Positions 3,717 to 32,000 of a stretch of DNA of 32,000 nucleotides are shown here, one piece after another; position 1 is the stretch's first letter; each line of letters begins with the position of its first letter. The notes below the pieces were generated by a model. It made no database searches and was not told the origin of the DNA. It saw only the letters and a list, made by a program, of their open reading frames with translations. The position numbers and the translations under genes were made by a program. Source of the stretch: Dubosiella newyorkensis (GTDB taxonomy: Bacteria > Bacillota_I > Bacilli_A > Erysipelotrichales > Erysipelotrichaceae); assembly GCF_001945605.1 (NCBI RefSeq), contig NZ_MPKA01000086.1:60001-92000 (forward strand). Reading direction: 5' to 3'.

Positions 3717-3791
3717 ATTTTTTCAGTTAGGCAAGAGGGAAGCGTTCTTTTTCTTGATGTATTACTATTTTTTTAGAAATGAAGAATCGAA

Positions 3792-4346: not shown

Positions 4347-4361
4347 CGGAAAGGAGAAAGT

Positions 4362-6297: not shown

Positions 6298-6426
6298 TGT
6301 TCGCATCAATTTTCTCTTAAGCGCTTGAAGTCCTTTAAAAATAGAAATGTTATTTCAAAGTCGATCCCGTGTCTTGTGAAGCAAAAACAAAGAGATACAA
6401 TAAGTCTAGTGTTTGAGGAGAAGAGG

Positions 6427-8840: not shown

Positions 8841-9014
8841 TTCAGATCCTCCTTTCTTTTTTATTTTACCAAGATAGAACAGAATCGTTTTCACTTAGAT
8901 TGCGGTCTTAGAAGAAAACATCACGCTTTTTGAAGAAAAAGGGTGGTGTTTTTCATATTCTTGAATGATAGATAGAGTATGGAAAGGTGCAATACAGACT
9001 AGAGAATAAAATGT

Positions 9015-9069
9015 GTTGACATTGTCAACGCATAGAGGTATATATGAGTTGATAAAGTCAACTCATATA
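9015..9069 (+). promoter_or_regulatory. marR promoter with two palindromic operator candidates
   Basis: TTGACA (9016-9021), a 17-nt spacer, then TATATA (9039-9044). The perfect palindrome GTTGAC-att-GTCAAC (9015-9029) covers the -35. A second inverted repeat, tatatgagttga/gtcaactcatata (9041-9069, 12 of 13), covers the -10 and +1. Confidence 0.5.
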
Positions 9070-9083
9070 TTGGAGGGAATACG

Positions 9084-9521
9084 ATGAATGAAGATTTGAT
9101 AAAAAAAATACGCCGGTTTAACCGGTACTACACTATCTGGTTGGACGTTTTGAATAAAGAGTATTTGGGAATGAGTTTCTCATGGCCTGAATCGAGAGTG
9201 TTATTTGACATCTATAAGAACCAAGGAATCAATGCCACTGAATTATGTGAGCATTTAAACATGGATAAAAGCTATGTAAGCAGAATTCTCGCAAAACTTG
9301 AAAAAAAAGGATTTATAACGAGAAAACTTGTTTCGGGGAGCAAGGGAATTAAAAAATTGTATTTAACTAAAACAGGAAGTGAAGAAGCGAAAAAAATAGA
9401 CTGGAATGGTGATCAACAAATTAGTGAAAAATTAAAAAATATAGATCAAGAAGATTGTGATCGATTATGTGAAGCCATGGAACGGATTGAACATATATTG
9501 TGTAAAAATGATGAAAAATAA
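9084..9521 (+). CDS. MarR family transcriptional regulator
   Basis: 145 aa with a winged-HTH region, 'ATELCEHLNMDKSYVSRILAKLEKKGFITRK'. GGAGG lies upstream. Confidence 0.85.
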   Translation: MNEDLIKKIRRFNRYYTIWLDVLNKEYLGMSFSWPESRVLFDIYKNQGINATELCEHLNMDKSYVSRILAKLEKKGFITRKLVSGSKGIKKLYLTKTGSEEAKKIDWNGDQQISEKLKNIDQEDCDRLCEAMERIEHILCKNDEK

Positions 9522-9544
9522 ATTGAACTTTAGGAGGAACTGTT

Positions 9545-10027
9545 ATGAAGATCGAAATAGTTTTAGCTTATAGGCATCCACAAGATATACGTGCTCTATT
9601 TTCAGAATATACAAATCTGTTAATTGCGAATGATCGTTCGTTTCAGAAGTATCTTGATATTCAGCGCTATGAAGAAGAAATAAATCATTTAGAAAAAAAA
9701 TACGGTATGCCCTTTGGAAGATTGTATTTGGCGTATTGTGATGGAGAAGTTGCAGGTTGTATTGGATTGAAAGGTATAGATCAAAAGAACTGTGAAATGA
9801 AACGCCTTTATGTAAGACCACCATTTAGAGGAAAAAATATTGGCAAATTGCTTATACAAAAAATCATAACTGACGCAAAAGAAATTGGTTATTCTTATAT
9901 GTTGTTAGACACTCTTCCTTTTTTAGAAAAGGCGATTAATGTGTATAAACAATTTGGATTCTACACGATAGATTGTTATAACAACAGTCCTATGAGTACA
10001 TCGATCTACATGAGATTGGATTTATGA
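9545..10027 (+). CDS. GNAT family N-acetyltransferase
   Basis: 160 aa with 'RLYVRPPFRGKNIGKLLI' (RGxGxG-type CoA loop). AGGAGG lies upstream, and the gene starts 24 nt after marR. Confidence 0.85.
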   Translation: MKIEIVLAYRHPQDIRALFSEYTNLLIANDRSFQKYLDIQRYEEEINHLEKKYGMPFGRLYLAYCDGEVAGCIGLKGIDQKNCEMKRLYVRPPFRGKNIGKLLIQKIITDAKEIGYSYMLLDTLPFLEKAINVYKQFGFYTIDCYNNSPMSTSIYMRLDL

Positions 10028-10826: not shown

Positions 10827-11641
10827 CAGCTCGTATCCTCTATCGATCGGTTCGGGAATACAAAGAGAAACATCCCAAAGCATCGGTAGCGGGTATACTG
10901 GCAAAACGGGATAAGAGCACTTCCGGCTACTACAAGCATTTGAGATCCAAACCATCCAAGACAAAAGTCCGGCGGGAAAAAACAAAAAAAGCAATCGTCA
11001 AGATCTACAACGATTCGCACCAGATCTATGGCTCTCCCAAGATTGCCGTGATCCTCCACAAGCATGGAATCCAAGGATGCCAGAAGTATGTCTATTCGAT
11101 CATGAAAGAAGCCAATATCAAACCGAAATATCTGAAACACAAGATAAAAACGACCATATCTAAAGGAAATGATCGAAAACTTCACAATCTTCTGAAAAGA
11201 CAATTCAATCCAAAAGATCTAGAGCGCGTATGGTGTACCGATATCACCTACATCTGGACAGAAGAAGGATTTGACTATCTGACCAGCGTGATGGATCTGT
11301 ATTCCAGAAAAATAGTCGGGTGGGTGATGACTCGAAATATGGAAGCCGCAAAAGTTCTGGAGTGTATAGAAATAGCCAAAAGAAGACGAGGAATCAAAAA
11401 GCCATTGGTGATCCACAGCGATCAAGGAGTGCAGTACACAAGCGAAGAATACAAAAACAAGACAGAAGGAATGGAAAGATCGTATTCGAGAAAAGGCAAT
11501 CCATGGGACAACGCCTGCATCGAAAGCTTTCATTCACTGATCAAGAGAGAATGGATCAACTTCTACCATTTCGAAACGATGAAAGAAGCGAAGAAAGCCG
11601 TATTCGAATATATAGAAGGATTCTACAATACGATCCGGATC
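10799..11641 (+). pseudogene. IS3-family transposase OrfB (DDE) reached by -1 frameshift, 3'-truncated
   Basis: I translated the -1 frame by hand and it is open from 10799. DDE landmarks are 'WCTDITY', 'VIHSDQGVQYTS' and 'NACIESFHSLIKRE'. The usual C-terminal tail is missing. Confidence 0.8.
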
Positions 11642-12444
11642 ATCAATGGAGCGTATATCAAAGAGGGAAATACTATCAAATATCGCCTTCCATATCATAT
11701 TTTGGTCGGAACACAAATGCTGGAATATGATCGATCTTTTTTAGGGGCCCGATTGTTCATGAACCAGTTCAATGGCAATTTGATCGTTTCTGGGGCTTTT
11801 GGGCTCTTTCAAAAGAAGGCTATCGTACAAGTGGGCAGCTATGCGCGAGATTCGCTAGGCGAAGATATGGAACTTGTCATGAAGCTCCATGCCTATTTTC
11901 GGCAAAATCAGCTTCCGTATACGATCGAATACGTGCCGCAAGCGGTATGCTGGACTCAAGTGCCGACTTCAGTCAAAAATATTTTCACCCAGCGAAGGCG
12001 GTGGCATGTTGGATTGATCCAATGCTTGAACAAGTATCGAAGAATGCTTTTTCGCTGCGCTTTGGTCCGCTTGGCTGGTTCTCGTACCCTTATTATTTGT
12101 TTTATGAATACTTGGCCCCGATCATTGAAGTGATCGGTGTTGTCGTGACTTTGTTGACACTTGTTATCAATATCATCAACATTCCGTATACGATCGTTTT
12201 TTTCTTTGTGTATTTTGTTTTTGGGATCATCATGGGCATCAGCGCTTTTTTAGCGAGGATCTATTCCCAGAACGTCTATCTTTCAAGACGCGATATTTTT
12301 CGAGCGATTGTTTTGGCTTTCGTGGAAGTGTTCTTCACCCAGTTCGTCATATTGTCCGCGAGGATCAGCGTGCTCTTCTTGATCTGCAAGAAAAAGCTAG
12401 AATGGGGAACGATCCAGCGCAACGGTTTTGGCGAAGAGCGATAA
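11642..12444 (+). pseudogene. Family-2 glycosyltransferase (PgaC/IcaA/cellulose-synthase-like), 3' part only, frameshifted
   Basis: 'GTQMLEYDRSF', 'VSGAFGLFQKK', 'GEDMEL' and the 'QRRRWHVG' (QxxRW) processive-GT2 motif. The frame switches in the T-run near 12045-12055 (..KYRRMLF | SLRFGPLGWFSYPYYLFYE..). The N-terminal catalytic half is absent. Confidence 0.75.
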
Positions 12445-12447
12445 GAT

Positions 12448-12475
12448 TTGCAAAATATACATTAAACTGTATAAT
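12448..12475 (+). promoter_or_regulatory. Sigma-A-type promoter of the yhfZ-like regulator gene
   Basis: TTGCAA (12448-12453), a 16-nt spacer, then TATAAT (12470-12475). The spacer contains AAATATACA. Confidence 0.5.
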
Positions 12476-12537
12476 AGAAGCCATAAAGGAACACGGTCAT
12501 CGCATCGGATTTGAACGACCGTAAATTGGGTGGACCT

Positions 12538-13461
12538 ATGGAGATTCATGATCTGTTATACAGCAAGAATGGGCTTTCAACGAAAATATTAGCCAAACGT
12601 ATGCTTTGTTTTGAGGAAGGAGAGAGGATCCCGACTGTCAGCGAATGGAACAAGGAGATCCATTTAGCAAGAGGCACCGTGCAAAACGCGCTCAAGCTCC
12701 TTCAAAGCTGCGGAGCTGTCGTTTTAGAGGCGCATGGACAATCAGGGACGCTGTTGAAAAAGAAGGATATGGCAAAGCTCTTAGAGATCTCGGGGATCAC
12801 GCAAATCTTAGGTGTGATGCCTTTGCCTTATTCAAAACGGTATGAAGGATTGGCGACTGGCTTGGTGGCGAATGTCGAAAATCGGTATGATATTCCTGTT
12901 TCGCTCGCTTTTATGCGCGGATCTAAAAATCGGGTATCTATGGTGCTTTGCGACCGGTACGATTTCGCGATCATTTCAAGATATGCCGCCGAAAAAATGA
13001 TTGAGGACGGTTTAGAAATCGAGATCGTCAAAAGCTTAGGGATGTTTTCCTATTTATCCAAGCATGTGCTAATGTTTCATGATCCGTATGTCGGCAGCAT
13101 AGAAGATGGGATGAAGATCGGTGTCGATGGCTCTTCGGTCGATCAAAAGAAGATGAGCGAGATCGCTTGCCGAAATAAATCGGTTCAGTACGTGGAAGTC
13201 GAATATACGCAAGTGGTGAAGAAAGTCATTTCTGGCGAAATCGACGCGGCCGTATGGAATATGGACGAAATCCAGGAAAAGCTTTACTCGATGAATTATA
13301 TTCCGCTCTCGATCGATGACGACAAAGATACCGAAGCGGTGATCGTCACCCATCGCACGCGTCAAGAAGTGGCGAAGATCCTGGATGATTTGATCCAGAC
13401 GGATTTTGTCCGCAAAAATCAGCAGCTCGTCATTGAGGGCAAGATGATCCCCAGTTATTGA
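12538..13461 (+). CDS. yhfZ: YhfZ-family regulator (GntR-like winged HTH + solute-binding-protein-like domain)
   Basis: 'IPTVSEWNKEIHLARGTVQNALKLLQSCGAV' is a GntR-type wHTH, followed by a ~220-aa periplasmic-binding-like domain. Gene context is the yhf/php set. I prefer the ATG at 12538 over the TTG at 12511. Confidence 0.8.
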   Translation: MEIHDLLYSKNGLSTKILAKRMLCFEEGERIPTVSEWNKEIHLARGTVQNALKLLQSCGAVVLEAHGQSGTLLKKKDMAKLLEISGITQILGVMPLPYSKRYEGLATGLVANVENRYDIPVSLAFMRGSKNRVSMVLCDRYDFAIISRYAAEKMIEDGLEIEIVKSLGMFSYLSKHVLMFHDPYVGSIEDGMKIGVDGSSVDQKKMSEIACRNKSVQYVEVEYTQVVKKVISGEIDAAVWNMDEIQEKLYSMNYIPLSIDDDKDTEAVIVTHRTRQEVAKILDDLIQTDFVRKNQQLVIEGKMIPSY

Positions 13462-13487
13462 GACAGGAATTCCTGTCTTTTTTTTTT
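13462..13487 (+). terminator. Rho-independent terminator of yhfZ
   Basis: The perfect 16-nt palindrome GACAGGAATTCCTGTC, followed by 10 T. Confidence 0.7.
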
Positions 13488-13500
13488 GGAAGCGCTAAAC

Positions 13501-13529
13501 TTGACATAGAAAGGGTATATCCTTATGAT
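13501..13529 (+). promoter_or_regulatory. Consensus-like promoter of the yhfY...thrE operon
   Basis: TTGACA (13501-13506), a 17-nt spacer, then TATGAT (13524-13529). Confidence 0.55.
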
Positions 13530-13547
13530 TTACCTGTAAATATAAAT

Positions 13548-13616
13548 TATTTTGTATATTTTAGAACGGAGAGAGAAAAGGAGGCTTTATTTTTTTTAAC
13601 ACAAATATACAAAATA
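13548..13616. promoter_or_regulatory. 14-bp inverted repeat pair in the operon leader (operator or RNA stem candidate)
   Basis: tattttgtatattt (13548-13561) pairs perfectly with aaatatacaaaata (13603-13616), with 41 nt between them. The AAATATACA core is also present in the yhfZ promoter. Confidence 0.35.
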
Positions 13617-13651
13617 TTATATATTGGTTATTTTATATGAAGGAGGTACCT

Positions 13652-13999
13652 ATGGATCATTTAGAACTTCTACAATCCTCAGGTTTGATCGCGCAAGAAA
13701 CATGCTTGAAAGCAAAAAAAGTCGAAATCGAGTGTATCCAACGTTTTGGAAACTCTGAAAAGACCGAAATGTTTATCACCCATTACGCTCTCGCCTTAGA
13801 ACGACATCAAAAAGGCGAAATTATTCCTGGACTTCAAAAAGAAGCCGTCGCTGAAATTTATAGTCATCCTGATCTCGAGGCTTGTCGTCAATTTTTAGAC
13901 GAGCTCGAATTACTGAGCGGATCGGATCTTTCTTCGATCGAAGAAGAATTCATCTTGATCCATCTTTTGAATCTCATCAACGAAAAAAACAATAAATAA
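13652..13999 (+). CDS. yhfY: YhfY-like PRD-domain-only protein
   Basis: About 115 aa and all-helical, matching the size and position of YhfY in the yhf/php set. AGGAGG lies 6 nt before the ATG at 13652. Confidence 0.7.
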   Translation: MDHLELLQSSGLIAQETCLKAKKVEIECIQRFGNSEKTEMFITHYALALERHQKGEIIPGLQKEAVAEIYSHPDLEACRQFLDELELLSGSDLSSIEEEFILIHLLNLINEKNNK

Positions 14000-14010
14000 G
14001 AGGAGTGCTT

Positions 14011-15333
14011 ATGTTCAACTATATCATTGCCGCATTGATCGGCGCGATGTCTGCCGTATTGGCAAACCGGAATATTGCCGTCTATAACGATGGCTTCCGA
14101 CCTGTCTATACAGAATATCTCAATGGAAATATGGACCGCAAAACTCTGGCCACTACTTCGTTTGCGGTCAGCATCGGTCTAGTCATCGGATTTGCTTTCA
14201 CGAATTCGATCGCGATGGGGATCGTCATCATCCATACATATTTATTGATGGGCGATATCATCGGAACATGGTTCCCGGACAATAAAAAAGGATTGATCCT
14301 TTCTGCAATCGTCGGGGCTCTGTGGGGAATCGCCGTCGTAACCTTCATGTCGTCGATCCAAGCCTTCTTCGCGATGTTCCCAGTCAACTTCCTGCCACAA
14401 CTTGCCGGCGTGGCGGACTATGTTGTCGCGACATTCGCTGTGTTCCCGGCATTGGTGGTCGCTTATCAAAATGGAGTCAAAAAAGGGATCATTACAGCAA
14501 TCGTGACATTGGTTGGCTATATGCTTGTCGCGCGCTTCGGTGTATTTCAGATCGGGGATTTCACGCTTGCTCTCAACGCGCCAGGTATGGCGATGCTGAT
14601 TGGCACGATCGTCATGATAGTCTTTGCCGTCAAGACAAAAACAGATGCGCAGGGCGCGGATCTTACGAATATTTTTAGCGCCAACATCGATGTGATCAAG
14701 AAAAACTGGTTCTATTTCGCGATCATGGGTGGACTTCTAGCGTGCGCGGCCTCGCAATGCTATTTGACGACAGATGTGATTTCGGGTCCTCTTGCGTTGA
14801 AAGGATCGTTTGCGGAAGCGGCTTTGGTCGCGATGGTCAGAGCGATCGGCTACATTCCTTTAGTGTATACGACAGCGATCGTTACAGGTGTCTTCTCGCC
14901 AGCCGGTTCTTATTTTAGTATCGCAGGTGGATTATTCGTAGCGGCCATGGGTCTAAGCATGCCAATGGAACCGATCGTAGCCTTCTTAGTTGGAGCGCTG
15001 ATCATGGGTTTAGAAATCGTTTTGCTTGGCACGATTGGAAGCTTGCTGGATAAATTCCCGGCCTTAAGAGAACTAGGCGATCATATTCGCGACGCGATGT
15101 CAAAGATCCTAGAGCTCGCCCTTCTAGTTGGAGGATTCACTTCGTCTTTTGCGATCATGAATGAAGTAGGCCTCGGCTCTCTTGGCCCGATGGCGGTCAT
15201 GATCATTTGGATGCTGAATAAATCGGCGAAAAAGCCGATGCTCATACCATTAGCCGTTGGTCCTGTTGTCGCGATCCTTTTAGGAATCGTCGCCAATTTG
15301 ATCAAGATCTTAGGTCTAGCTGTGATCGTATAA
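14011..15333 (+). CDS. yhfT: YhfT-like polytopic inner-membrane protein (putative transporter)
   Basis: 440 aa with about 12 hydrophobic segments, YhfT size and context. GAGGAG lies before the ATG at 14011. Confidence 0.8.
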   Translation: MFNYIIAALIGAMSAVLANRNIAVYNDGFRPVYTEYLNGNMDRKTLATTSFAVSIGLVIGFAFTNSIAMGIVIIHTYLLMGDIIGTWFPDNKKGLILSAIVGALWGIAVVTFMSSIQAFFAMFPVNFLPQLAGVADYVVATFAVFPALVVAYQNGVKKGIITAIVTLVGYMLVARFGVFQIGDFTLALNAPGMAMLIGTIVMIVFAVKTKTDAQGADLTNIFSANIDVIKKNWFYFAIMGGLLACAASQCYLTTDVISGPLALKGSFAEAALVAMVRAIGYIPLVYTTAIVTGVFSPAGSYFSIAGGLFVAAMGLSMPMEPIVAFLVGALIMGLEIVLLGTIGSLLDKFPALRELGDHIRDAMSKILELALLVGGFTSSFAIMNEVGLGSLGPMAVMIIWMLNKSAKKPMLIPLAVGPVVAILLGIVANLIKILGLAVIV

Positions 15334-15376
15334 AACAAGCTTAATGAAAAGAACAATAGAATAGGAGAAAAAAAAG

Positions 15377-15736
15377 ATGTTAAAAATCGTAGTAGGCGGT
15401 GCCTTGAATAAAAACGAAAACGCGGAATTGATCGAAAAATATGGAAATGGACAAGTCGAAGTCAAAGTCATGGGAGACTTGCAGGCAGCGATGGCTTTAA
15501 AAAACGGACAAGCCGATTATTATTTTGGATCTTGTCAAACTGGCGCTGGAGGCGCTTTGTCGATGGCGATCGCTCTGAATGGAATGAGCAAGTGCGTTCC
15601 AGTGGCGATGGTCGGAAAAGTGCTGAGCGATGAAGAAATCGAGCAAGCGATCAAGGATGGAAAAACGGCGTTTGGATTCGTACCTGAAGCGGCTGCTTCG
15701 GTGATTCCTGTGATCATGGATGTGCTGTTGAAATGA
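15377..15736 (+). CDS. yhfU: YhfU-like DUF2620 protein
   Basis: 119 aa and soluble, with the Gly-rich Cys loop 'GSCQTGAGGALSMAIAL'. Size and position next to yhfT fit YhfU. Confidence 0.75.
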   Translation: MLKIVVGGALNKNENAELIEKYGNGQVEVKVMGDLQAAMALKNGQADYYFGSCQTGAGGALSMAIALNGMSKCVPVAMVGKVLSDEEIEQAIKDGKTAFGFVPEAAASVIPVIMDVLLK

Positions 15737-16776
15737 GCCGGGTCAAAAATTACGCCAAAAAGACGCTTCTAGCAACACTTGATCCAGGGCATTCGATCGA
15801 TCATCTTTTCATGAACGCCCTGGATTCGATCGAAGAAGACAACGACATTCAATATATGGGTGTCAAAAATGTCCGCCAGATCCCCACCTCCTTCATTCAA
15901 ACGCTCATAGACAACGGGTTCGCGCTTCATACTTATGATGGCCACAGCCACAATGGTAGAGCCATCGATTACGCAAGGATCAATCCGATCACTGGAAAAT
16001 GGATGACAGGCTCTTCGAGCGGAAGCGCGATCAATGTCTTTTATGGCATCAACGATCTAGGGATCGGGACGGATGGTGGCGGATCGGTTCTAGCTCCCGC
16101 TCTTGCCGTCAACTGTTTTGGCTTTATTAGTCCACTACTGGCGGAAGAGAAGATGAAACGATTCACGAAAAAATCAACCGATGGGATCGAGTTTTATCCA
16201 TCGCTTGGCTTTATCTCGAACTCTTGGAAGACGATGGTCAAGGCGATCGAAGCCACTTTGCCACTTCCTAAAGCTCAAAAGCCGATCCTCCTTCACGCGC
16301 CAGAAGGCTTGATCGACTCTTTGCCAAAGGAAAGCAAAAATGTGCTACAAAAATCAGGATTGAAATTTGAAACAGTAAAGATACCATGTTTTGAAGATGA
16401 GAGGCAGCCAATGATCGAATTTTTATCCAAAGAGCTGCAAGAATGCGATGTGTTCTTGAACTTCGAAAACAAAGTCGATTTTTATGGACTTGGCGATAGC
16501 GTGCTTGGTCATTTTGATCAAGAAACAAAGGCGTTCCAAAACAAAAGTGGCAAAACGCTCATTCGTGTAGCCAATATGGTCAAAGCGACAGCCTTATGCG
16601 TTCCTGCTTTCGAGCTATCTAGCGGCTTTACTCTTTATTGTTCTTCCTCGCTTGAGAAGATCGCGGATCTATTGAAGATCGCAAACACTTTACGGGTGAA
16701 AGAAGACGAGCTGATCCAACGCTATTTTCGTGATACAGCTCCTTATTTTGAACAAGGTTTGATATGGAACCATTAG
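15733..16776 (+). CDS. Compact amidase-signature (AS) family protein
   Basis: 'TGSSSGSAINV' and 'GTDGGGSVLAPA' match the AS GGSS(G)GS / GTDxGGSxRxPA blocks, and 'GVKNV' is a candidate catalytic Lys. ATGA overlap with yhfU. Confidence 0.7.
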   Translation: MSRVKNYAKKTLLATLDPGHSIDHLFMNALDSIEEDNDIQYMGVKNVRQIPTSFIQTLIDNGFALHTYDGHSHNGRAIDYARINPITGKWMTGSSSGSAINVFYGINDLGIGTDGGGSVLAPALAVNCFGFISPLLAEEKMKRFTKKSTDGIEFYPSLGFISNSWKTMVKAIEATLPLPKAQKPILLHAPEGLIDSLPKESKNVLQKSGLKFETVKIPCFEDERQPMIEFLSKELQECDVFLNFENKVDFYGLGDSVLGHFDQETKAFQNKSGKTLIRVANMVKATALCVPAFELSSGFTLYCSSSLEKIADLLKIANTLRVKEDELIQRYFRDTAPYFEQGLIWNH

Positions 16777-17618
16777 AAGGGTATACATTGATGCATGAAC
16801 ATATGCATCTCGATCTATCTTACGTCAAGCACGATCCAGATACTTGTCTAGACTGCTTTGAACAAACACTAAAAGAACTGCAAGAACTCTACGCCAAAGG
16901 CGTGCGTCGGATTTTAGAAGTCAGCAATATCGGAATGGGGCGGGATCTTGCGTGGATCCAAAAGCTCGAAAAACGATCGGGAATCCAGATCGTGACTTCT
17001 ACCGGATTTTATAAAGAGCCATTTCTTCCAGATCTAAGCGTGGAGGAAATGGCGGCCTTGATGATCGAGGATCTAAAGAGTCAAAAAGCGCAAGTCATTG
17101 GCGAAATTGGAACATCGTATCAAAAATGGAAAGAACAAGAACGCAAAGTGTTCGAGGCAGCCGTTTTGGCGCATCAAGAAACAGGCGCGCTGATCACGAC
17201 GCATACGACCTTAGGAACGCTTGGTCTTGAACAAGCGCGCTATTTGATCGAGAACGGTGTGGATCCAGATCGGATCATCATTGGACATATGGATCTGAGC
17301 AACGATTTGCATACGATCTTAGACGTGCTCGCTCTTGGTGTCAATATTGGATTCGATACGATCGGGAAAACGAATTACTTGCTGGATGAAAGGCGTGTCG
17401 AGCTTCTTTGCGAGCTCGAGAAAAGAGGGCTGATCGATCATGTCGTTCTTTCGATGGATATCACGCGTAAAACGCAGCTCAAAGATTTTAAAGGAAAGGG
17501 ATACGCCTATTTGCTCGATACGTTCGTGCCATTGCTTAGAAAGGCGAATATGAAGGAAACATCGATCCAACAGATGCTCAAACAAACACCAAACCGTTTA
17601 TTAGGAGGTAAGCTATGA
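16764..17618 (+). CDS. php: Phosphotriesterase-homology protein (Php; amidohydrolase superfamily)
   Basis: 'GYTLMHEHMHLDL' is the HxH metal site. 284 aa, a PTE/Php-like TIM-barrel length, with 'GEIGTS' and 'IIGHMD' blocks. Confidence 0.88.
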   Translation: MEPLEGYTLMHEHMHLDLSYVKHDPDTCLDCFEQTLKELQELYAKGVRRILEVSNIGMGRDLAWIQKLEKRSGIQIVTSTGFYKEPFLPDLSVEEMAALMIEDLKSQKAQVIGEIGTSYQKWKEQERKVFEAAVLAHQETGALITTHTTLGTLGLEQARYLIENGVDPDRIIIGHMDLSNDLHTILDVLALGVNIGFDTIGKTNYLLDERRVELLCELEKRGLIDHVVLSMDITRKTQLKDFKGKGYAYLLDTFVPLLRKANMKETSIQQMLKQTPNRLLGGKL

Positions 17619-18712
17619 AAACGTATCCGCTCGAAAGCATATCGCTAAAACAAGCCAAAGAATTTCAATTCAAGATGGTCGACGCGATCACAAAGACTTT
17701 TTCGGGAAAAGAAAGCTTGAGTCGGGGCGATCTAGGAGTCGTTCCTGGCTTGAACAAGCCGAAAACGACATGGAAAGCGGAACAGGCGATCGCGCGCTTT
17801 TTCGATGCCGAAGCGGCGATGCTTGTCCGTGGTTCGGGGACGGGAGCGATCCGTTACGCTCTTTTTGCGACCACGAAACCCAATGGAAAGCTTCTTGTTC
17901 ACTCGGCTCCGATCTACAGCACGACAGAAACTTCGATCCGAATGCTAGGGCTTGTTCCGATCATGGCGGATTTCAACGATCCAGAAATGATCAAACAAGT
18001 CATGCAGGAGAATCCGGATATCGAGGCCGCGCTCATTCAATATACAAGACAGGTTCCAGAGGATCATTACGATATTAAGGAAGTCATCGAGACGATCAAA
18101 GCACAAAAAGAGATCCCGATCGTCACGGATGACAACTACGCGGTGATGAAGGTCAGCAAGATCGGAAGCGAGTGCGGGGCGGATCTTTCGTGCTTTTCCA
18201 CTTTCAAGCTGCAAGGACCCGAGGGAATTGGATGTATTGTCGGAAAGAAAAAATATATAGATGCTTTGATCAAAGAACACTACTCAGGCGGCTCGCAAAC
18301 GCAAGGCTGGGAAGCGATGGAAGTGCTTCGAGGTCTTGTCAGCGCGCCTGTCGCATTAGCTATCCAAGCCGAAGTCAACGAAGAACTGCTTCAAAGAATC
18401 CAAGAGCTGCCGCAAGTCAAAGACGCTTTTCTTGCCAACGCTCAATCTAAAGTGCTAATCGTAGAGTTTCATGAACCGATCGCGCAAAAAGTACTTGAGC
18501 GAGCTGAAAAGCTAGGGGCTTTGCCAAATCCAGTTGGAGCGGAATCAAAATACGAGATCGCGCCGATGTTCTATCGTGTCTCGGGCACGTTCATCAAATC
18601 GGATCCTTCTCGCAAAGATTCGATGATCCGGATCAATCCGAATCGAAGCGGAGCAGATACGATCGTATCGATCTTGAAGCAGGCGCTGGAAAGCGAGGAA
18701 GCATGTTCCTAA
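17615..18712 (+). CDS. yhfS: YhfS-like PLP-dependent (fold-type I) enzyme
   Basis: 365 aa. 'TDDNYAVM' and 'STFKLQGPEG' are the Asp and Schiff-base Lys blocks. ATGA overlap with php. Confidence 0.8.
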   Translation: MKTYPLESISLKQAKEFQFKMVDAITKTFSGKESLSRGDLGVVPGLNKPKTTWKAEQAIARFFDAEAAMLVRGSGTGAIRYALFATTKPNGKLLVHSAPIYSTTETSIRMLGLVPIMADFNDPEMIKQVMQENPDIEAALIQYTRQVPEDHYDIKEVIETIKAQKEIPIVTDDNYAVMKVSKIGSECGADLSCFSTFKLQGPEGIGCIVGKKKYIDALIKEHYSGGSQTQGWEAMEVLRGLVSAPVALAIQAEVNEELLQRIQELPQVKDAFLANAQSKVLIVEFHEPIAQKVLERAEKLGALPNPVGAESKYEIAPMFYRVSGTFIKSDPSRKDSMIRINPNRSGADTIVSILKQALESEEACS

Positions 18713-19878
18713 AAAAAGTAGTGGAAAGAAATCCAAGTCTTGTAGAAGCGGGGTTTCATTTGATGAATACACATACGATCTTGCCAGATACGTATGTCGT
18801 GGATGTCGATCAGTTTGTAGCCAACGCCAAAGCGATCTTAGAAAAAGCCAACCTCTATGGGATTGACTTGTACTTTATGCTCAAGCAGATCGGACGGAAT
18901 CCATACTTAGCCAAAAAGCTAGTCGAGCTCGGGTATCCTGGAGCTGTCGCGGTCGATTATAGGGAAGCGGAAGTGTTGATGGCTCACGACATCCCCATCA
19001 GCAACATTGGACATCTTGTGCAAGTACCGCAAGGCTTTTTAGAAAGAGTCGTAGCGTATGAGCCAGACTACCTCACGGTCTTTTCACTCGATAAGATCGA
19101 GGAGATCGAAAAGATCTGCGCGAAGTTGAACAAAAAACAAAAAGTGCTGCTCAAAGTCGTGGGCGAAGACGATGTATTGTATACGGGCCAGTTTGCCGGC
19201 TTCGAATTGAAAGATCTCGATCAGGTCGTAGAAACGATCAATAAATTCGACCACATTCAAATTGGCGGTGTCACTTCTTTTCCTTGTTTCTTGGTGGATG
19301 AAACGAGCGGGAAGGCAAAGCCCACGCCAAATCTTGAAACGCTTTTGCAGGCCAAAGCGGTCTTAAAAGCGCATGGAATCGAGGATATCAACGTGAATGC
19401 GCCTTCCGCGACTTGTATCGAAACGTTAGAAGAAATGGCAGCGTGCAAATCGATCACGAGCGCAGAACCAGGACACGGTTTATCAGGGACTACACCGCTA
19501 CATGCCCACAGAACTATGAAAGAGATTCCTTGCGTGATCTATATGAGCGAGATCTCGCACAACTTCAAAGAGCACGCGTATAGTTTTGGGGGCGGACATT
19601 ATCGGCGCTCGCATATTCAATATGCTCTTGTTGGAAGATCGCTCAAACAAGCCGAGTGGACGAAAGTCTTGGATCTAGATCCGACGTGTATCGATTATTA
19701 TTTTGAGCTGGAAAGATCGTTTCCGGTTTCATATCCTGTGTGTATGGCGTTTCGGTTTCAGATTTTCGTGACGCGTTCGCATGTAGCGCTTTTGGAAGGT
19801 CTTCATCATGGAGATCGAAAAAGGATCGGTTTGTATGATAGTCAAGGAAGGAGTATCGTATGGGAAGATTTATCGTGA
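18703..19878 (+). CDS. yhfX: YhfX-like alanine-racemase-fold (fold-type III PLP) protein
   Basis: 391 aa with an N-terminal TIM-barrel region containing 'YFMLKQIGRNPY' (candidate PLP Lys). Size and context fit YhfX. Confidence 0.75.
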   Translation: MFLKKVVERNPSLVEAGFHLMNTHTILPDTYVVDVDQFVANAKAILEKANLYGIDLYFMLKQIGRNPYLAKKLVELGYPGAVAVDYREAEVLMAHDIPISNIGHLVQVPQGFLERVVAYEPDYLTVFSLDKIEEIEKICAKLNKKQKVLLKVVGEDDVLYTGQFAGFELKDLDQVVETINKFDHIQIGGVTSFPCFLVDETSGKAKPTPNLETLLQAKAVLKAHGIEDINVNAPSATCIETLEEMAACKSITSAEPGHGLSGTTPLHAHRTMKEIPCVIYMSEISHNFKEHAYSFGGGHYRRSHIQYALVGRSLKQAEWTKVLDLDPTCIDYYFELERSFPVSYPVCMAFRFQIFVTRSHVALLEGLHHGDRKRIGLYDSQGRSIVWEDLS

Positions 19879-21065
19879 TCGTCCTCGATGGGTTCGGGAT
19901 GCAGGCGATGAAGGATGCGGCGATCGTTCGCCCAGGGGATGAAAACAGCAGCACGCTAGGCAGCTTGCTTCATGATTTTCCTGATCTTAAGCTGCCCACT
20001 TTAGAATATCTTGGTTTGATGAACGCGTTTGGTCAGGAAAGTAGGGCGATGAAGTTTTCTTCTTCGGCTTCCTTTGGACGATGTGAGCTGATGCATTTTG
20101 GAGCGGACACGTTTCAAGGGCATCAAGAGATCATGGGAACCAAGCCGAAAAAGCCTGAAGTGCATGATTTTCAACAAAAGATCTACGAAATCGAGAAGAT
20201 CTTGCTTTCCAATGGGCATCAAGTCGAGCGTCTTGGCGAGAAAGGATTGGAGTACTTGCTGGTGGATCAATATTGCACGGTGGCGGATAATATCGATTCG
20301 GATCTAGGGATGGCGTATAATTGCACGGCTCCTCTTGATTTTCTTTCTTTTGATCAAGAGATGGAGATCGCGCGTCTTGTTCGAAGTGTTGTTTTTGTCA
20401 ACCGGGTCATCGCTTTTGGCGGGACAGGGAATACGATCGAAGATATTTTAAAGGCTGAACAAGTGCGGGAAGGAAAATATATTGGTTTGCTCGCTTCCGC
20501 GACAAAGTCGTATGAGCAAGGGTATGAATGCCGGCATCTTGGCTATGGTGTCGATCCAAGCGTGCAGGCGCCCATGATCTTAGGCAAGGCTAGCATTCCC
20601 GTGTCTTTGTTTGGCAAAGTGGCGGATATCGTTCATAACGAGTATGGCAAATCGGTTTCAATGGTGGATACAGCCAAGGTGCTTGATCTTACGATCGAAG
20701 AAATGAAAACGATGGAGCATGGGTTTATTTGCACGAATGTGCAGGAAACCGATCTAGCGGGGCATTCGCAAGATCCGCTCCGGTATAAAGAGGTGCTTGA
20801 GATCGCGGATCAAAAGCTAAGACAAATTGTCGAGTTGGTGAATGAAGAGGATGTGCTCGTGGTCATGGCGGATCATGGCAACGATCCGGACATTGGCCAC
20901 AACAAGCATACAAGGGAGAACGTCCCTCTGCTCGTGAAAGCTAGAAAGGAAGGGGTCGATCTTGGTTTGCGCGCCTCTCTTTCGGATGTGGGCGCGAGCG
21001 TGTGCGATTATTTTGGGGTTGAGGCTCCAGAAAATGGGACGTCGTTCTTGCCTTTGATTCGATGA
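19860..21065 (+). CDS. yhfW: YhfW-like phosphopentomutase/alkaline-phosphatase-superfamily mutase
   Basis: 'IVIVLDGFG', 'ETDLAGHSQD' and 'ADHGNDP' are the metal-binding blocks of phosphopentomutase-type enzymes. Confidence 0.85.
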   Translation: MGRFIVIVLDGFGMQAMKDAAIVRPGDENSSTLGSLLHDFPDLKLPTLEYLGLMNAFGQESRAMKFSSSASFGRCELMHFGADTFQGHQEIMGTKPKKPEVHDFQQKIYEIEKILLSNGHQVERLGEKGLEYLLVDQYCTVADNIDSDLGMAYNCTAPLDFLSFDQEMEIARLVRSVVFVNRVIAFGGTGNTIEDILKAEQVREGKYIGLLASATKSYEQGYECRHLGYGVDPSVQAPMILGKASIPVSLFGKVADIVHNEYGKSVSMVDTAKVLDLTIEEMKTMEHGFICTNVQETDLAGHSQDPLRYKEVLEIADQKLRQIVELVNEEDVLVVMADHGNDPDIGHNKHTRENVPLLVKARKEGVDLGLRASLSDVGASVCDYFGVEAPENGTSFLPLIR

Positions 21066-21793
21066 AAGCGTCATGGAGCGAAGGATCGCTTGCGGATGCG
21101 ATCGTCTTGGCGGGATCGATCTTGTTGGAGAACGGAGCGGAAACGCGTCGGATCGAGGATACGATGTTTCGGCTGGCTCATGTCTATGGGGCAGAAGAGA
21201 TCGAGACGTACGCGACACCAGGCATGTTGATGGTTTCCTTTTCCTACCATGGAAAGAGTGTCTGGAGGATGAGGCGGACAAGAGTTCGTTCGACAGATCT
21301 TGAAAAGATCGATCAGATCAATTCTCTATCGCGTCTCGCTTCAGCCAACGCACTCCCTTTAACCCAATTGGTTCAAGAATTGAAGCGCGTGCAAGAAGGG
21401 GCGGGTGTTGAAAACAAGCAGTTCATTTTGGGGGCTGCCACTTCTTCTTTCGGATTCGCGCTTCTTTTTCATGCTTCCTTCTATCAAGCTTGTATGGCGG
21501 GGATCCTAGGAGGGACTTGTGGTTTATTCTTGCAAAGATCGAAAGCGAAGGGTGTGTTCAAGAACTTGATGGCGAGCGCTTTTATTTCCTTTTTTGCTTC
21601 TTTCGCTCATTCTAAGCTTATATTGTTGGGGGCTCTTATGATCTTGGTTCCAGGGATGCTTTTGACCAACGCTTTGCGGGATATCGTGAATGGAGACCCG
21701 ATTTCGGGAATGTCAAGGCTTGGGGAGGCGATCACGATCGCGGCCTCGATCGCTTTGGGTAATTTGGCGATTCAAATGCTGGGGTGTTTTTGA
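21062..21793 (+). CDS. Threonine/serine-exporter family protein, N-terminal-type subunit (YjjP/ThrE_1-like)
   Basis: 'LENGAETRRIEDTM' is the hallmark start of the ThrE/DUF1212 family, followed by hydrophobic helices. ATGA overlap with yhfW. Confidence 0.8.
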   Translation: MKASWSEGSLADAIVLAGSILLENGAETRRIEDTMFRLAHVYGAEEIETYATPGMLMVSFSYHGKSVWRMRRTRVRSTDLEKIDQINSLSRLASANALPLTQLVQELKRVQEGAGVENKQFILGAATSSFGFALLFHASFYQACMAGILGGTCGLFLQRSKAKGVFKNLMASAFISFFASFAHSKLILLGALMILVPGMLLTNALRDIVNGDPISGMSRLGEAITIAASIALGNLAIQMLGCF

Positions 21794-22209
21794 TGAAAGG
21801 GGTCATTGGCGCTTTTTTGGGCGCTCTGGGGTTTGGCTTGATGTATCATCTTTCGGGGAAGAAGCTTTGGTGGACGGCGCTTTGTGGAGGGGTTGGTCAG
21901 TTTATTTGCTTGCTTGTTTCAAGATGGACAGATTCGGCGATGGCTCCCATGTTGGTGGCCGCCTTTTGTGTCAATAGCTTTGCGGAAATCTTGGCTCGTC
22001 GATTGAAGGCGCCTGTGATCGTGTTTTTGGTGTGCGCTCTGATTCCGCTCGTTCCTGGAAAAGGGATCTATGAAGCGTTGTTGTGTTGTTTAAGCGAAAA
22101 TGGCGCGAGCATGGAGGCGGCATCGAAAACATTGCTGGAAGCTTCGGGGATCGTGGCTGGTTGCGCGATCAGTTCGTGGTTGTTTTATCGGAAATCAAGT
22201 GAAGAATGA
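21793..22209 (+). CDS. Threonine/serine-exporter family protein, C-terminal-type subunit (YjjB/ThrE_2-like)
   Basis: 138 aa with 4-5 helices. Its ATG shares one nt with the preceding TGA (TGATG). This is the typical partner of the YjjP-like subunit. Confidence 0.75.
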   Translation: MKGVIGAFLGALGFGLMYHLSGKKLWWTALCGGVGQFICLLVSRWTDSAMAPMLVAAFCVNSFAEILARRLKAPVIVFLVCALIPLVPGKGIYEALLCCLSENGASMEAASKTLLEASGIVAGCAISSWLFYRKSSEE

Positions 22210-22234
22210 ATATGTCTAAGGCAAATTGAGATTG

Positions 22235-22275
22235 GCCGCTTATTCTTAATCCTCATTAAGAGTAAGCGGCTTTTG
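22235..22275 (+). terminator. Rho-independent terminator ending the yhf/php operon
   Basis: A 13-bp stem gccgcttattctt / aagagtaagcggc (one G-U pair), a 10-nt loop, then TTTT. Confidence 0.6.
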
Positions 22276-22276
22276 C

Positions 22277-22318
22277 TTGTCTTCAAGAGTCGTGTCACTA
22301 TAAAATATCTTAAGATAT
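22277..22318 (+). promoter_or_regulatory. Promoter plus palindromic TetR operator candidate
   Basis: TTGTCT (22277-22282), a 16-nt spacer, then TATAAA (22299-22304). The perfect 14-bp palindrome ATATCTTAAGATAT (22305-22318) follows directly. Confidence 0.45.
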
Positions 22319-22353
22319 ATATCGTAGGATATTTCATAGAAAAGAGGAGCGAT

Positions 22354-22926
22354 ATGCCACCAAGACGAAAAATAACGAAAGAAATGCTGTTAGACCATGC
22401 TTTTCAAATAGCTGAAAGTAAGGGAATTTCTGCTGTAACCTCACGAAGCGTTGCAAAATCGGTAGGATGTTCTGTTCAGCCTGTTTTTAGCCAGTTTCCA
22501 ACTATGGAAGAACTGCGGCAAGCGACCTTTGATTATGCGTGTAATAAGTTTGTAGACGAGGTATTAGTTTTTGAAAATCAGCCCGACTTTATGCTTAAAG
22601 TAGTTTCATGAACAATAGACCTTGCTCGAAACAGACCACACTTATACCGTTTGCTTTATTTGTCGGGCGGTTTTCAAGGAAAAACCCTAATGGAATCTAT
22701 GATGACGTATGAAAGCAATCAAAAAATGATAGCAAAAATGACAGAACTATACGGATTGGACACAGAAAACTGCAAAGATATTCTAATGCGTAGCTGTTTA
22801 TTCCTATTGGGAATCGGAACAATGATTTGTGAAAATCACTTTTCTTATACAGACGAACAGATTTCCCAAATGATGAAGCAGACGGTTGCGGATCTGGTGC
22901 AGGGAGCAAAGAGGCGCAGCATATGA
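22354..22926 (+). pseudogene. TetR/AcrR family regulator interrupted by one in-frame TGA (22609-22611)
   Basis: The N-terminal HTH is 'ISAVTSRSVAKSVGCSVQPVFSQFPT'. The ORFs 22354-22611 and 22651-22926 are in the same frame, and the reading '..MLKVVS*TIDLARNRPHLYRLLYLS..' is continuous. Confidence 0.75.
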
Positions 22927-24269
22927 AACAAATCGGATTATTGAGGGCATTGGCACTGACACGCAAGGCGAACAAAATGAGTAATCAAGAGCGGATTGCT
23001 TTGCAGCAACGCCGCTTGAAGGAGCTAATTGCCTATGCGAGGAAAAATAGCTCATACTTTTCGAAGCTGTATAAAGGCATTGATAAGGACTGTCCTTTAT
23101 CAGAATATCCGACTACTAATAAGGCGGATATGGCAAAGCACTTTGACGAATGGTTTACAGATCGTTCGATCACAAGGGACATTGTAGATAGTTTTATGTC
23201 AGACCTTTCCAATGTGGGGAAGAAATTAAACGGAAAATATCTGGTTTACACCACTTCTGGCTCAACTGGAACTCCTTGTATTGTCCTATATGATGACACA
23301 ACTATCAATGTTTCCTCTGCGATTGGTGTTTTACGCAGTTTTGCAAGGAAAGAAGATATGAGGTTGTTTATGCAGTCGGGCGGAAAAGCCCTTGCCCTTT
23401 TTGCCGACAACGGTTTTTATCTTGGAAGCGGCTCAGGCAAGTATCAGCTTCGTAAAATGCCATGGAAGAAAAGAAAAATGAAAGCCTTGGATGTTCGAAA
23501 ATCGAATTCCGAAATTATTGCTTTGTTGAATGCGTACCAGCCATCTATGATTGGCTGCTATCCTTCCGCGATGGAAATACTGGCTGCCAAACAGGAAAAG
23601 GGAAATTTGCATATTCGACCAGCCATGATCATGACGGGTGGAGAAAAGCTGAACGACGATGTACGGGAATATTTGTCCAAAGTGTTCGGCTGTTATGTGC
23701 AGACCAATTATTCTTGTACGAAGGGAGGCACAGTTGCTTGCGAATGTACCGAAAGACACTTCCATATAAACGATGATTGGATAATTGTTGAAGCTGTTGA
23801 CGAAAACAATCAGCCTGTTCCGTTTGGAACCCAGTCAGCAAAGGTATTACTTACAAATCTTGCGAATAAGATATGCCCTATCATCCGTTTTGAAATAACG
23901 GATAGGATTATTCTTCATAAAGAACCATGCGCGTGTGGCAATTCCAGACCGTGGCTTACTTTAGAAGGTAGAACAGATGACATTCTGGTATTTGGGAATG
24001 GCATCAAGTTTGCTCCGCTACCTCTCTATGCCATATTAAAAGAAGTTCAAGGAATAGAAAGGTTTCAACTTATCCAACATGTGAATGACCGTTTGGAGCT
24101 GTGGCTGATAGCCAAGAACAAACAGGAACAATTTGCGAAAGCAAAACAAGCGATCGAAGCGCATTTGCGTCAGAATGGAGTAGATGCCAAGATTTATTTA
24201 TCAAACAGTGATCCCTCTGCAGATCCAATAAGTGGAAAATTCAAACATGTTGTCGCAAAGAAGAGCTGA
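22923..24269 (+). CDS. Phenylacetate-CoA-ligase-family (PaaK / coenzyme F390 synthetase-like) adenylate-forming enzyme
   Basis: 448 aa with the 'TTSGSTGTP' P-loop, 'MTGGEKL', and the N-terminal 'QQRRLKELIAYARKNSSYFSKLY' typical of the PaaK-like clade. ATGA overlap with the TetR gene. Confidence 0.8.
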   Translation: MKQIGLLRALALTRKANKMSNQERIALQQRRLKELIAYARKNSSYFSKLYKGIDKDCPLSEYPTTNKADMAKHFDEWFTDRSITRDIVDSFMSDLSNVGKKLNGKYLVYTTSGSTGTPCIVLYDDTTINVSSAIGVLRSFARKEDMRLFMQSGGKALALFADNGFYLGSGSGKYQLRKMPWKKRKMKALDVRKSNSEIIALLNAYQPSMIGCYPSAMEILAAKQEKGNLHIRPAMIMTGGEKLNDDVREYLSKVFGCYVQTNYSCTKGGTVACECTERHFHINDDWIIVEAVDENNQPVPFGTQSAKVLLTNLANKICPIIRFEITDRIILHKEPCACGNSRPWLTLEGRTDDILVFGNGIKFAPLPLYAILKEVQGIERFQLIQHVNDRLELWLIAKNKQEQFAKAKQAIEAHLRQNGVDAKIYLSNSDPSADPISGKFKHVVAKKS

Positions 24270-31999: not shown

Positions 32000-32000
32000 C

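Follow-up and report, generated by a model that had tools for sequence, protein, structure and literature searches.

The 32,000-nt stretch of Dubosiella newyorkensis analysed here (contig NZ_MPKA01000086.1, positions 60,001 to 92,000; the window, numbered from its first base) harbors a yhf/php gene cluster. It belongs to the common type of this known orphan cluster, in which an amidase gene is present, and it is not categorically new. The locus comprises 11 consecutive plus-strand open reading frames (ORFs) between 12.4 and 22.3 kb, namely, the regulator gene yhfZ (12538-13461) followed by ten genes (13652-22209) that include php, an amidase-like gene and a pair of ThrE-family genes. The same gene set was found to be syntenic in 76 other complete clusters and on six other contigs of D. 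newyorkensis, for which gene callers gave an identical gene set. With regard to function, the cluster could be a YhfZ-repressed catabolic operon, connected to the phosphoenolpyruvate:sugar phosphotransferase system (PTS), for an amide-linked amino-acid/amino-sugar(-acid) compound degraded via phosphorylated intermediates, a reading of which we are about half persuaded. A literature search on the gene, family and domain names, in which few subscription journals were covered, found no functional study and no assigned substrate. Similarly, the PDB lists YhfX (4kbx), YhfS (4j8l) and YhfZ (2ozz) under names with "uncharacterized" or "hypothetical" and Php (1bf6, 4lef) only as "phosphotriesterase homology protein." This agrees with a first-pass annotation of the window, which had noted a solved Php structure with no assigned substrate or pathway.

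The eight proteins YhfZ, YhfY, YhfT, YhfU, Php, YhfS, YhfX and YhfW, which had been matched to the Escherichia coli K-12 set by motif and size, were shown by family models and BLASTP to be homologous to their E. coli counterparts (30-55% identity). The E. coli cluster has the same catalytic residues; it lacks the amidase and the ThrE pair. To place the locus among its relatives, one genome per species was scanned with the YhfU pattern DYY[FL]G[SA]CxTG, as the YhfT alignments contained no stretch conserved enough for a scan pattern. The YhfU pattern was found in at least 273 of 185,579 species, a lower bound, and it misses E. coli-type sequences (DYYIGAC), so that the sample leans away from enterobacteria. 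The best 80 loci, together with annotated records of Cetobacterium, Bacillus thuringiensis and E. coli, formed a set of 83 onto which all eleven window proteins were mapped by tblastn, giving 76 complete clusters; since the query was a Firmicute one and the 80 are its best matches, the proportions are indicative only. The complete clusters span Bacillota, Thermotogota, Spirochaetota, Fusobacteriota, Actinomycetota and Gammaproteobacteria; Php is present in 74 of the 76, YhfW in 67 and a YhfY-like ORF in 67.

The usual gene order across these clusters is Z-(Y)-U/T-[amidase]-Php-S-X-W, and the enterobacterial order represents a small minority. In the annotated E. coli K-12 record the order is Z-Y-X-W-php-U-T-S (b3383-b3376), beside frlABCDR, whereas in the window it is Z / Y-T-U-Ami-Php-S-X-W-ThrE without the frl neighbour. 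Hence, E. coli is the outlier in gene order, and the window is not a re-ordered derivative. The earlier description of the locus as re-ordered and expanded is correct in so far as the order differs from that of K-12 and three genes are additional; it did not hold for the family, in which this is the majority architecture and the ThrE pair alone is lineage-specific. The majority form, e.g., in Cetobacterium somerae (NZ_CP092520), Enterocloster, Hungatella and Clostridium spp., has the same order, the same amidase family and the YhfZ box described below. Placement of yhfT before yhfU was seen only in the group formed by Dubosiella, Faecalibaculum, Enterocloster, Hungatella, Mediterraneibacter and Anaerorhabdus. 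Gene order was not treated as cluster-defining, as it is not conserved across the family. An Opp/Dpp-type ATP-binding cassette (ABC) ATPase that appeared as a recurrent neighbour in 16 loci was rejected, since the similarity was of the generic ABC kind (25-35%), and an actual system of this type within the cluster was limited to one Tissierellia metagenome-assembled genome (MAG), locus L026. There, five Opp/Dpp-like ORFs (a binding protein, two permeases and two ATPases; 2154-9571) separate yhfZ from yhfY-U-T-Php-S-X-W, and a 194-aa ORF resembles a beta-lactamase-fold fragment by sequence reading alone. The ABC-like ORFs may be an alternative front end in this one lineage.

The transcriptional layout also agreed with the first-pass annotation, which had described a separately promoted and terminated regulator gene ahead of a 10-gene operon. 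The operon promoter-like site, with 11 of 12 consensus matches, and the 17-bp terminator-like hairpin were recovered, and the seven consecutive overlapping junctions (4, 13, 4, 10, 19, 4, and 1 nt) were all exact upon recomputation; yhfT and yhfU are spaced by 43 nt. The totals of promoter-like and terminator-like sites corresponded to shuffle expectation (17 vs 15.7 and 11 vs 11.3, respectively), and the four sites that border the two units carry weight because of their position and score, not presence alone. Scanning of the operon for internal terminators revealed none that was convincing, and a search of the whole window against Rfam returned no RNA family, so that the leader has no known riboswitch or element of the RAT type. 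The ten genes are predicted to form one co-transcribed unit with a transcript of ∼8.7 kb. For yhfY, the ORF list contains an alternative ATG start at 13637; the start at 13652 was preferred because the Shine-Dalgarno sequence AAGGAGG (13640-13646) lies 5 nt upstream of it and 68 homologs begin at that Met.

YhfZ matched NF041241 at 363 bits (cut-off 260) as well as PF14502 (HTH_41) and PF14503 (YhfZ_C), and showed 32% identity to E. coli YhfZ in BLASTP; PDB entry 2ozz matches its C-terminal domain. A 23-nt element is present in one copy at the yhfZ promoter and in two copies downstream of the operon promoter. Its core is a 20-bp palindrome, ATATACA-N6-TGTATAT, from which each of the three window copies deviates by one mismatch. 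Boxes 2 and 3 together account for a 23-nt inverted repeat (I1) in the leader. The interpretation of I1 as an RNA hairpin was set aside in favour of two copies of a palindromic operator, because related species often carry a single box. At least one copy of the palindrome was found next to yhfZ or upstream of yhfU in 74 of the 83 loci, with up to two mismatches tolerated and either A or T accepted at position five. The density was 1.55 per kb in the regions flanking yhfZ or upstream of yhfU vs 0.086 per kb elsewhere, and 158 yhfZ-flanking zones contained 101 sites as against 5.2 ± 2.4 (maximum 13) in local-composition shuffles. The palindrome is conserved across phyla, with T4, C6 and G15 nearly invariant across loci, and Gammaproteobacteria possess the variant ATATTCA-N6-TGAATAT. 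E. coli K-12 has two variant copies, ATATTCATTTTTTTGAATAT between yhfY and yhfX and ATTTTCAGTAAATTGAATAT just upstream of yhfZ (11009-11028 and 12351-12370 of the K-12 stretch compared, L009), and the palindrome upstream of yhfX suggests a second regulated start in that species. The 20-bp palindrome is probably the YhfZ operator, an attribution made because a GT...AC-type palindrome at both promoters fits an autoregulated GntR-family repressor. YhfZ may thereby repress both units.

The amidase-like protein matched PF01425 at 30.6 bits, with the Pfam alignment covering only residues 89-131 (43 residues). Its signature GSSSG...GGGS and its triad positions align to GatA and FAAH, and K45, S94-S95-S96 and S118 were invariant in 42 family members with 42-68% identity to the window protein; one of S94-S96 is the presumed cis-Ser. 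The AlphaFold model (predicted local distance difference test, pLDDT, 91.9) gave top Foldseek matches that were all amidase-signature proteins, i.e., GatA, malonamidase E2, FAAH, allophanate hydrolase and NylA, with a probability of 1.0, a template modelling score (TM) of ∼0.6 and an identity of 12-15%. Amidase-signature enzymes typically have ∼400-500 aa, whereas the window protein, at 347 aa, is ∼100 residues shorter. It is probably a trimmed, active member of the group, as judged from the alignment and the model. The gene was present in 40 of the 76 complete clusters. In a reverse census of metagenome contigs, in which a minimum of 1.5 kb of flanking sequence was required, 69 of the 70 amidase copies adjoined yhf genes; they stood on either side of php, at one end or the other of the cluster, or in divergent orientation. 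Hence, this amidase subfamily is dedicated to the yhf cluster and almost exclusive to it. A dedicated yet optional gene of mobile position would suit a peripheral entry step, e.g., opening of an amide form of the substrate.

The two adjacent genes at the end of the operon encode proteins matching PF06738 (ThrE, 187 bits) and PF12821 (ThrE_2, 96 bits) and are coupled to yhfW by a 4-nt and then a 1-nt overlap. The census of co-occurring genes gave a different result from that for the amidase, as only two of the 76 complete clusters, those of Dubosiella muris and a Faecalibaculum MAG, contained the pair, which is confined to Dubosiella, Faecalibaculum and their closest metagenomic relatives (amidase identity 58-99%). 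In Anaerorhabdus-type Erysipelotrichaceae (L020, L021; 16213-19812), other ORFs after yhfW replace the pair; by sequence reading alone, these are an M24-like peptidase, a class I/II aminotransferase and an M29-type aminopeptidase. Members of the ThrE family are known chiefly as exporters, of threonine and serine in Corynebacterium. Within the same family, E. coli yjjPB have been reported as succinate transporter genes (PMC7236211). The pair is a putative lineage-specific add-on for export of a released product. An exporter of this kind would also suit a non-catabolic cluster, serving the salvage or repair of a damaged or unusual metabolite or the synthesis of a small molecule exported by the ThrE pair, and over-expressed Php does feed an anabolic bypass in E. 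coli (PMC3010111). This explanation appears far-fetched, since the dedicated repressor, the operators at both promoters, the PRD protein and the permease form an inducible catabolic layout, nagB follows the cluster in several lineages, and the absence of the ThrE pair from 74 of the 76 complete clusters implies that export is not a core feature.

A connection of the catabolic operon to the PTS was considered on the basis of YhfY, YhfU and the neighbouring genes. YhfY reached 23 bits against the PRD model PF00874, equal to the cut-off and hence borderline, and was 31% identical to E. coli YhfY (BLASTP, E 2e-7). Its His49, Arg56 and Glu102 were invariant in 68 homologs, and the second PRD histidine, His109, was kept in 84%; E. 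coli YhfY differs in having Asn in place of the second histidine. It is likely that regulation is coupled to the PTS via YhfY. In agreement with this, two loci of Thermotogota and two of Treponema have ptsH/ptsI as immediate neighbours of the cluster (L033, L037 and L063 with both genes, L072 with enzyme I alone). YhfT matched PF10797 at 397 bits, was 30% identical to E. coli YhfT and belongs to a small family (248 clusters at 50% identity). Its gene adjoins yhfU, in either order, in 75 of the 76 clusters. YhfU matched DUF2620 (PF10941) at 139 bits and was 43% identical to E. coli YhfU; its Cys53-x-Thr55-Gly motif was invariant in 20 sequences, with Cys53 in a glycine-rich loop. The predicted structure (pLDDT 96.8) was closest in the PDB to RpiB 1o1x (Foldseek, TM 0.70, root mean square deviation 3.2 Å), and ranks 1-6 were all RpiB entries (five structures, TM 0.61-0.70). 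By hhalign, Cys53/Thr55 aligned to Cys66/Thr68 of E. coli RpiB (E 0.01, probability 4%, 26 columns), and a profile search gave a weak match to ribose/galactose isomerase at the Cys-x-Thr motif; against the Pfam model LacAB_rpiB (PF02502) there was no match even at E<=10. RpiB/LacAB isomerases thus share the fold and the Cys-x-Thr-Gly motif with YhfU. They differ from it in size (119 aa for YhfU vs 149 aa for RpiB) and in that YhfU, unlike RpiB, is always paired with a membrane protein; as read from the alignment, YhfU is also devoid of the N-terminal Asp-His of RpiB. The RpiB C-terminal region beyond the end of YhfU holds the arginines of that enzyme. An isomerase activity of YhfU is uncertain. 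DUF2620 weakly resembles Gly_rich_SFCGS (PF14272, ∼115 aa) in Pfam (E 0.085), and the two may form one superfamily of small Cys-loop proteins.

These features raise the question whether YhfT and YhfU themselves have a PTS-type transport role, which we regard as doubtful. YhfT and YhfU would then be a new PTS-type importer in which HPr~P, directly or via a shared enzyme IIA (EIIA), phosphorylates Cys53 of YhfU; YhfU, as phospho-carrier, would phosphorylate the substrate during translocation by YhfT, and YhfU~P or HPr~P would phosphorylate YhfY and so set the activity of YhfZ. The near-constant adjacency of yhfU and yhfT, the invariant cysteine in its glycine-rich loop, the accompanying PRD protein with its conserved His and the ptsH-ptsI neighbours of the Thermotogota and Treponema loci are in line with such an importer. 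So is the fact that no kinase recurs in any of the 76 clusters, even though the core contains a phosphomutase-like enzyme, and the ula system offers an annotated precedent of a PTS permease accompanied by a phospho-lactonase. Foldseek, on the other hand, groups YhfU with RpiB and not with enzyme IIB (EIIB) proteins, no YhfU-YhfT fusion proteins occurred among the hits, no EIIA is encoded nearby, and comparison with UlaA, UlaB and GatB was negative (see below), so we consider the importer improbable both as such and in its individual phosphorylation steps. Equally speculative is a wider version in which YhfT, YhfU and YhfY constitute an unrecognised phosphorylating uptake-and-sensing module feeding an undescribed pathway for amide-linked amino sugars or amino-aldonates in gut and sediment anaerobes. 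Little confidence is likewise placed in its assignment of parts, i.e., a permease, an RpiB-fold cysteine phospho-carrier replacing EIIB, a PRD sensor talking to YhfZ and the compact amidase as entry enzyme.

The enzymes of the core showed conserved catalytic residues throughout. Php scored 225 bits against the phosphotriesterase (PTE) family and was 42% identical to E. coli Php. Its H11, H13, E114, H147, H175 and D232 align with E. coli H12, H14, E125, H158, H186 and D243, which we take to be the metal ligands of the E. coli structure, and the six positions were at least 95% conserved in 76 homologs. The next-best NCBIfam family was the phospho-furanose lactonase NF045706 (99.7 bits, below the cut-off of 630). 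PTE-family phospho-sugar lactonases of this kind (NF045706; Lmo2620-type, 3pnz) belong to the same amidohydrolase family and share the binuclear metal site, and Php scored 93 bits against 3pnz vs 233 bits against E. coli Php. An E. coli pdxB mutant is rescued when Php is over-expressed, by a route believed to produce 2-oxo-3-hydroxy-4-phosphobutanoate, a small phospho-acid, and the protein was described there as "of unknown function" (PMC3010111). In another D. newyorkensis assembly (GCA_948706785.1, L002 5155-5982), Php has 275 instead of 284 aa, a within-species length variation. Among the pyridoxal 5'-phosphate (PLP) enzymes, YhfS matched YhfS-like_C (PF22475) and was 55% identical to E. 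coli YhfS (4j8l), with Met gamma-lyases, YnbB-type C-S lyases and cysteine desulfurases as its nearest solved relatives. YhfX matched YhfX-like_C (PF21279) and Ala_racemase_N, was 45% identical to E. coli YhfX (4kbx), and was about equidistant from alanine racemases and D-threonine/D-3-hydroxyaspartate aldolases. YhfW scored 550 bits on PRK12383 (cut-off 254), with 49% identity to E. coli YhfW, and 126 bits on the DeoB equivalog TIGR01696, below its cut-off of 341. Lys198 of YhfS, Lys61 of YhfX and the alkaline-phosphatase-type metal ligands D10, D298, H302, D338, H339 and H350 of YhfW were conserved (at least 95% in ∼70 homologs each). A nagB gene (TIGR00502, above cut-off in the four copies scored) directly follows yhfW in six loci of different lineages and lies upstream in a seventh. 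The relatives of the PLP enzymes, the sugar-phosphate theme and nagB suggest that the intermediates are alpha-amino acids and, at the same time, phosphorylated derivatives of sugars. Candidates include phosphates of amino-aldonates with the corresponding lactones, or conjugates of amino sugars; glucosamine 6-phosphate (GlcN-6-P) is a possible product in some lineages.

The same enzymes could also serve the catabolism of a peptide-like or lactam-type amino-acid compound without a sugar, e.g., a D-amino-acid peptide or a cyclic or N-acylated amino acid, although this seems rather unlikely. Mammalian PTER, of the same hydrolase family as Php, is an amidohydrolase of N-acetyltaurine and N-acetyl-beta-alanine (PMC11374699, PMC13311154), and the structural neighbours of the amidase include 6-aminohexanoate cyclic-dimer hydrolase and peptide amidase. 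The ORFs of Opp/Dpp and beta-lactamase-fold type inside the L026 cluster and those of peptidase and aminotransferase type after yhfW in Anaerorhabdus-type loci, all assigned by sequence reading, would suit a peptide-like compound, as would the fact that YhfX is as near to racemases as to aldolases. The individual steps that it entails are similarly doubtful: Php and the amidase would be plain amidohydrolases, the PLP enzymes would racemise and then deaminate, and YhfW would not be a sugar mutase. The 550-bit match of YhfW to a phosphopentomutase-family model with its metal ligands kept, as well as the RpiB fold and motif of YhfU, argue for sugar phosphates. Moreover, among catabolic genes only nagB and ptsHI recur as neighbours, while the apparent ABC-ATPase family of 16 loci reflects generic ABC similarity.

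Several observations weigh against the PTS-connected, sugar-phosphate reading favoured here. By hhalign, YhfT vs UlaA gave nothing significant (E 0.17, 12 columns), and YhfU vs UlaB (E 0.09) and vs GatB (E 0.23) were non-significant; against these three references, to which the comparison with known PTS proteins extended, membership of YhfT/YhfU in the known PTS permeases was unsupported. No recurrent EIIA-like ORF was found in the 76 clusters, and ptsHI lie beside the cluster in just four and nagB in just seven of the 76 loci. A role of YhfU as an isomerase is made uncertain by its want of the C-terminal third and, as read, of the N-terminal Asp-His of RpiB. Php scored 283 bits on PRK09875, below the equivalog cut-off of 486, and has thus diverged from the E. 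coli enzyme; phosphorylated substrates are not guaranteed for it, since PTER acts on non-phosphorylated N-acetyl amino acids (PMC11374699). Both repression by YhfZ and co-transcription of the ten genes are read from sequence only, and the substrate chemistry is the least secure element of the model, inferential throughout. The first-pass annotation had proposed the dismantling of an amide- or ester-linked amino-acid/sugar-phosphate conjugate; the YhfU fold, the PRD histidine and the nagB and ptsHI neighbours fit this proposal, which stays a suggestion.

From the homology, synteny, conserved catalytic residues, conserved palindrome and neighbouring genes established here, we infer a model that comprises repression by YhfZ, PTS coupling, an order of steps and a substrate class. 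In this model of a YhfZ-repressed, PTS-connected operon, YhfZ, a GntR-type protein with the ligand-binding YhfZ_C domain, would bind the 20-bp palindrome and keep both units off until an inducer appears, with the box over the yhfZ -10 and the two boxes downstream of the operon promoter holding off the two promoters. A phosphorylatable histidine of YhfY would couple this control to the PTS (HPr/enzyme I). YhfT would be the permease, and its constant partner YhfU a sugar-phosphate isomerase or a phospho-carrier. The amidase-signature hydrolase, as an accessory enzyme, would cleave an amide bond in the compound taken up, and Php would act hydrolytically on a phosphorylated intermediate, at a lactone, lactam or N-acyl bond. 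Relocation of the phosphate would fall to YhfW, while the PLP enzymes would act on the alpha-amino-acid centre, YhfX by racemisation or retro-aldol cleavage and YhfS by beta/gamma-elimination or transamination. The ThrE pair would export the released amino acid or dicarboxylate. The substrate would accordingly belong to the amide-linked amino-acid/amino-sugar or amino-aldonate compounds that give sugar phosphates such as GlcN-6-P.

The yhf/php cluster has been without a function or substrate since the E. coli Php structure, despite PDB entries for four of its proteins. The window displays the form of the cluster that is common outside enterobacteria, and its conserved candidate YhfZ operator provides a handle for reporters and for ligand screens of the regulator. 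The dedicated amidase family points to an amide-bearing substrate, the RpiB-like YhfU and the PRD histidine make PTS involvement testable, and the nagB and ptsHI neighbours suggest an amino-sugar phosphate product. As Dubosiella and its relatives are abundant in the mouse gut, the nutrient is probably a diet- or host-derived gut compound. The features of the locus are listed in the table.

Table. Genes, candidate operators and predicted transcription signals of the yhf/php locus (window coordinates).
Feature	Position	Strand	Description
yhfZ promoter-like site	12447-12475	+	TTTGCA-17-TATAAT, 10/12 consensus matches; directly upstream of yhfZ
YhfZ box 1, ATATACATTAAACTGTATAA	12455-12474		candidate operator; overlaps yhfZ promoter -10
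yhfZ	12538-13461	+	307 aa; GntR-type HTH plus YhfZ_C regulator
Terminator-like hairpin after yhfZ	13460-13479	+	8-bp stem, then T9
Operon promoter-like site	13501-13529	+	TTGACA-17-TATGAT, 11/12; top score in scanned region
YhfZ box 2, ATATAAATTATTTTGTATAT	13540-13559		candidate operator; just downstream of operon promoter -10
YhfZ box 3, ATATACAAAATATTATATAT	13605-13624		candidate operator; in leader ahead of yhfY
yhfY	13652-13999	+	115 aa; stand-alone PRD protein
yhfT	14011-15333	+	440 aa; polytopic membrane protein, putative permease
yhfU	15377-15736	+	119 aa; DUF2620, small RpiB-fold protein
Amidase-like gene	15733-16776	+	347 aa; compact amidase-signature enzyme
php	16764-17618	+	284 aa; phosphotriesterase-family binuclear-metal hydrolase
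yhfS	17615-18712	+	365 aa; fold-type I PLP enzyme
yhfX	18703-19878	+	391 aa; fold-type III PLP enzyme
yhfW	19860-21065	+	401 aa; phosphopentomutase-like metalloenzyme
ThrE gene	21062-21793	+	243 aa; ThrE-family membrane protein, large subunit
ThrE_2 gene	21793-22209	+	138 aa; ThrE_2 membrane protein, small subunit
Operon terminator-like hairpin	22234-22271	+	17-bp stem, then T-rich tail

The density of GATC had been taken in the first-pass annotation as a mark of a native operon. The count of eight sites in 17281-17760 was reproduced and native status is compatible with it; the density is the norm of the window and not distinctive. The window contains 503 GATC sites (15.7 per kb), 4.2 times the expectation from base composition, and GATC ranks second among all tetramers in frequency; with a second-order Markov model as the reference, the excess was 1.48-fold, the highest of any tetramer by that measure. 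The operon, with 18.8 per kb, is in line with the window. In the eleven cluster genes, 120 of the 178 sites are in the nnG-ATC phase, a majority attributable to a strong preference for the ATC (Ile) and GAT (Asp) codons, and GATC as a Dam-site or nativeness sign was set aside as mostly explained by codon usage. GATC-poor stretches of lower GC content were observed at 9001-10000, 22001-24000 and 31001-32000 and may be foreign DNA.

Just upstream of yhfZ, at 10940-12133 (and 11947-12444), one ORF combines an IS3-type transposase (HTH_21 plus rve) and, in the same frame, the C-terminal portion of a family-2 glycosyltransferase, an arrangement that points to insertion of an insertion sequence (IS) into a glycosyltransferase gene. 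The D. newyorkensis contig L001 carries this IS/glycosyltransferase gene, and the short upstream stretch of L002 and L004 has none. Further upstream, acyl-modifying units occur at 4362-6297 (an AMP-binding enzyme and a GNAT protein), 7352-8894 (a CAT-like acetyltransferase beside an AraC-type regulator) and 9084-10027 (a MarR and GNAT pair in a stretch of 32% GC). Directly after the operon terminator, 22273-24269 has the lowest GATC density in the window and contains a TetR-like ORF, a small ORF and a 448-aa protein with a faint AMP-binding match, whose gene is split into two calls (188 and 263 aa) in contig L002.

Two known systems offer a comparison for the arrangement of the yhf/php cluster. 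The D-glucosaminate (dga) system of Salmonella consists of a mannose-type PTS, the PLP ammonia-lyase DgaE and the aldolase DgaF. It is a precedent in that an amino-aldonate is phosphorylated upon import, after which a phosphorylated alpha-amino acid is processed by a PLP enzyme of fold type I. The protein families of dga and yhf differ throughout, and dga lacks a PTE-family hydrolase, a fold-type III PLP enzyme and a mutase. Similar to the yhf/php cluster, the L-ascorbate (ula) system of E. coli comprises, by annotation, a repressor (UlaR), a permease (UlaABC), a small cytoplasmic partner, a phospho-lactonase (UlaG) and then sugar-phosphate enzymes. It deviates in that UlaG belongs to another hydrolase family and ula contains no PLP enzymes, whereas the yhf cluster contains no EIIA.

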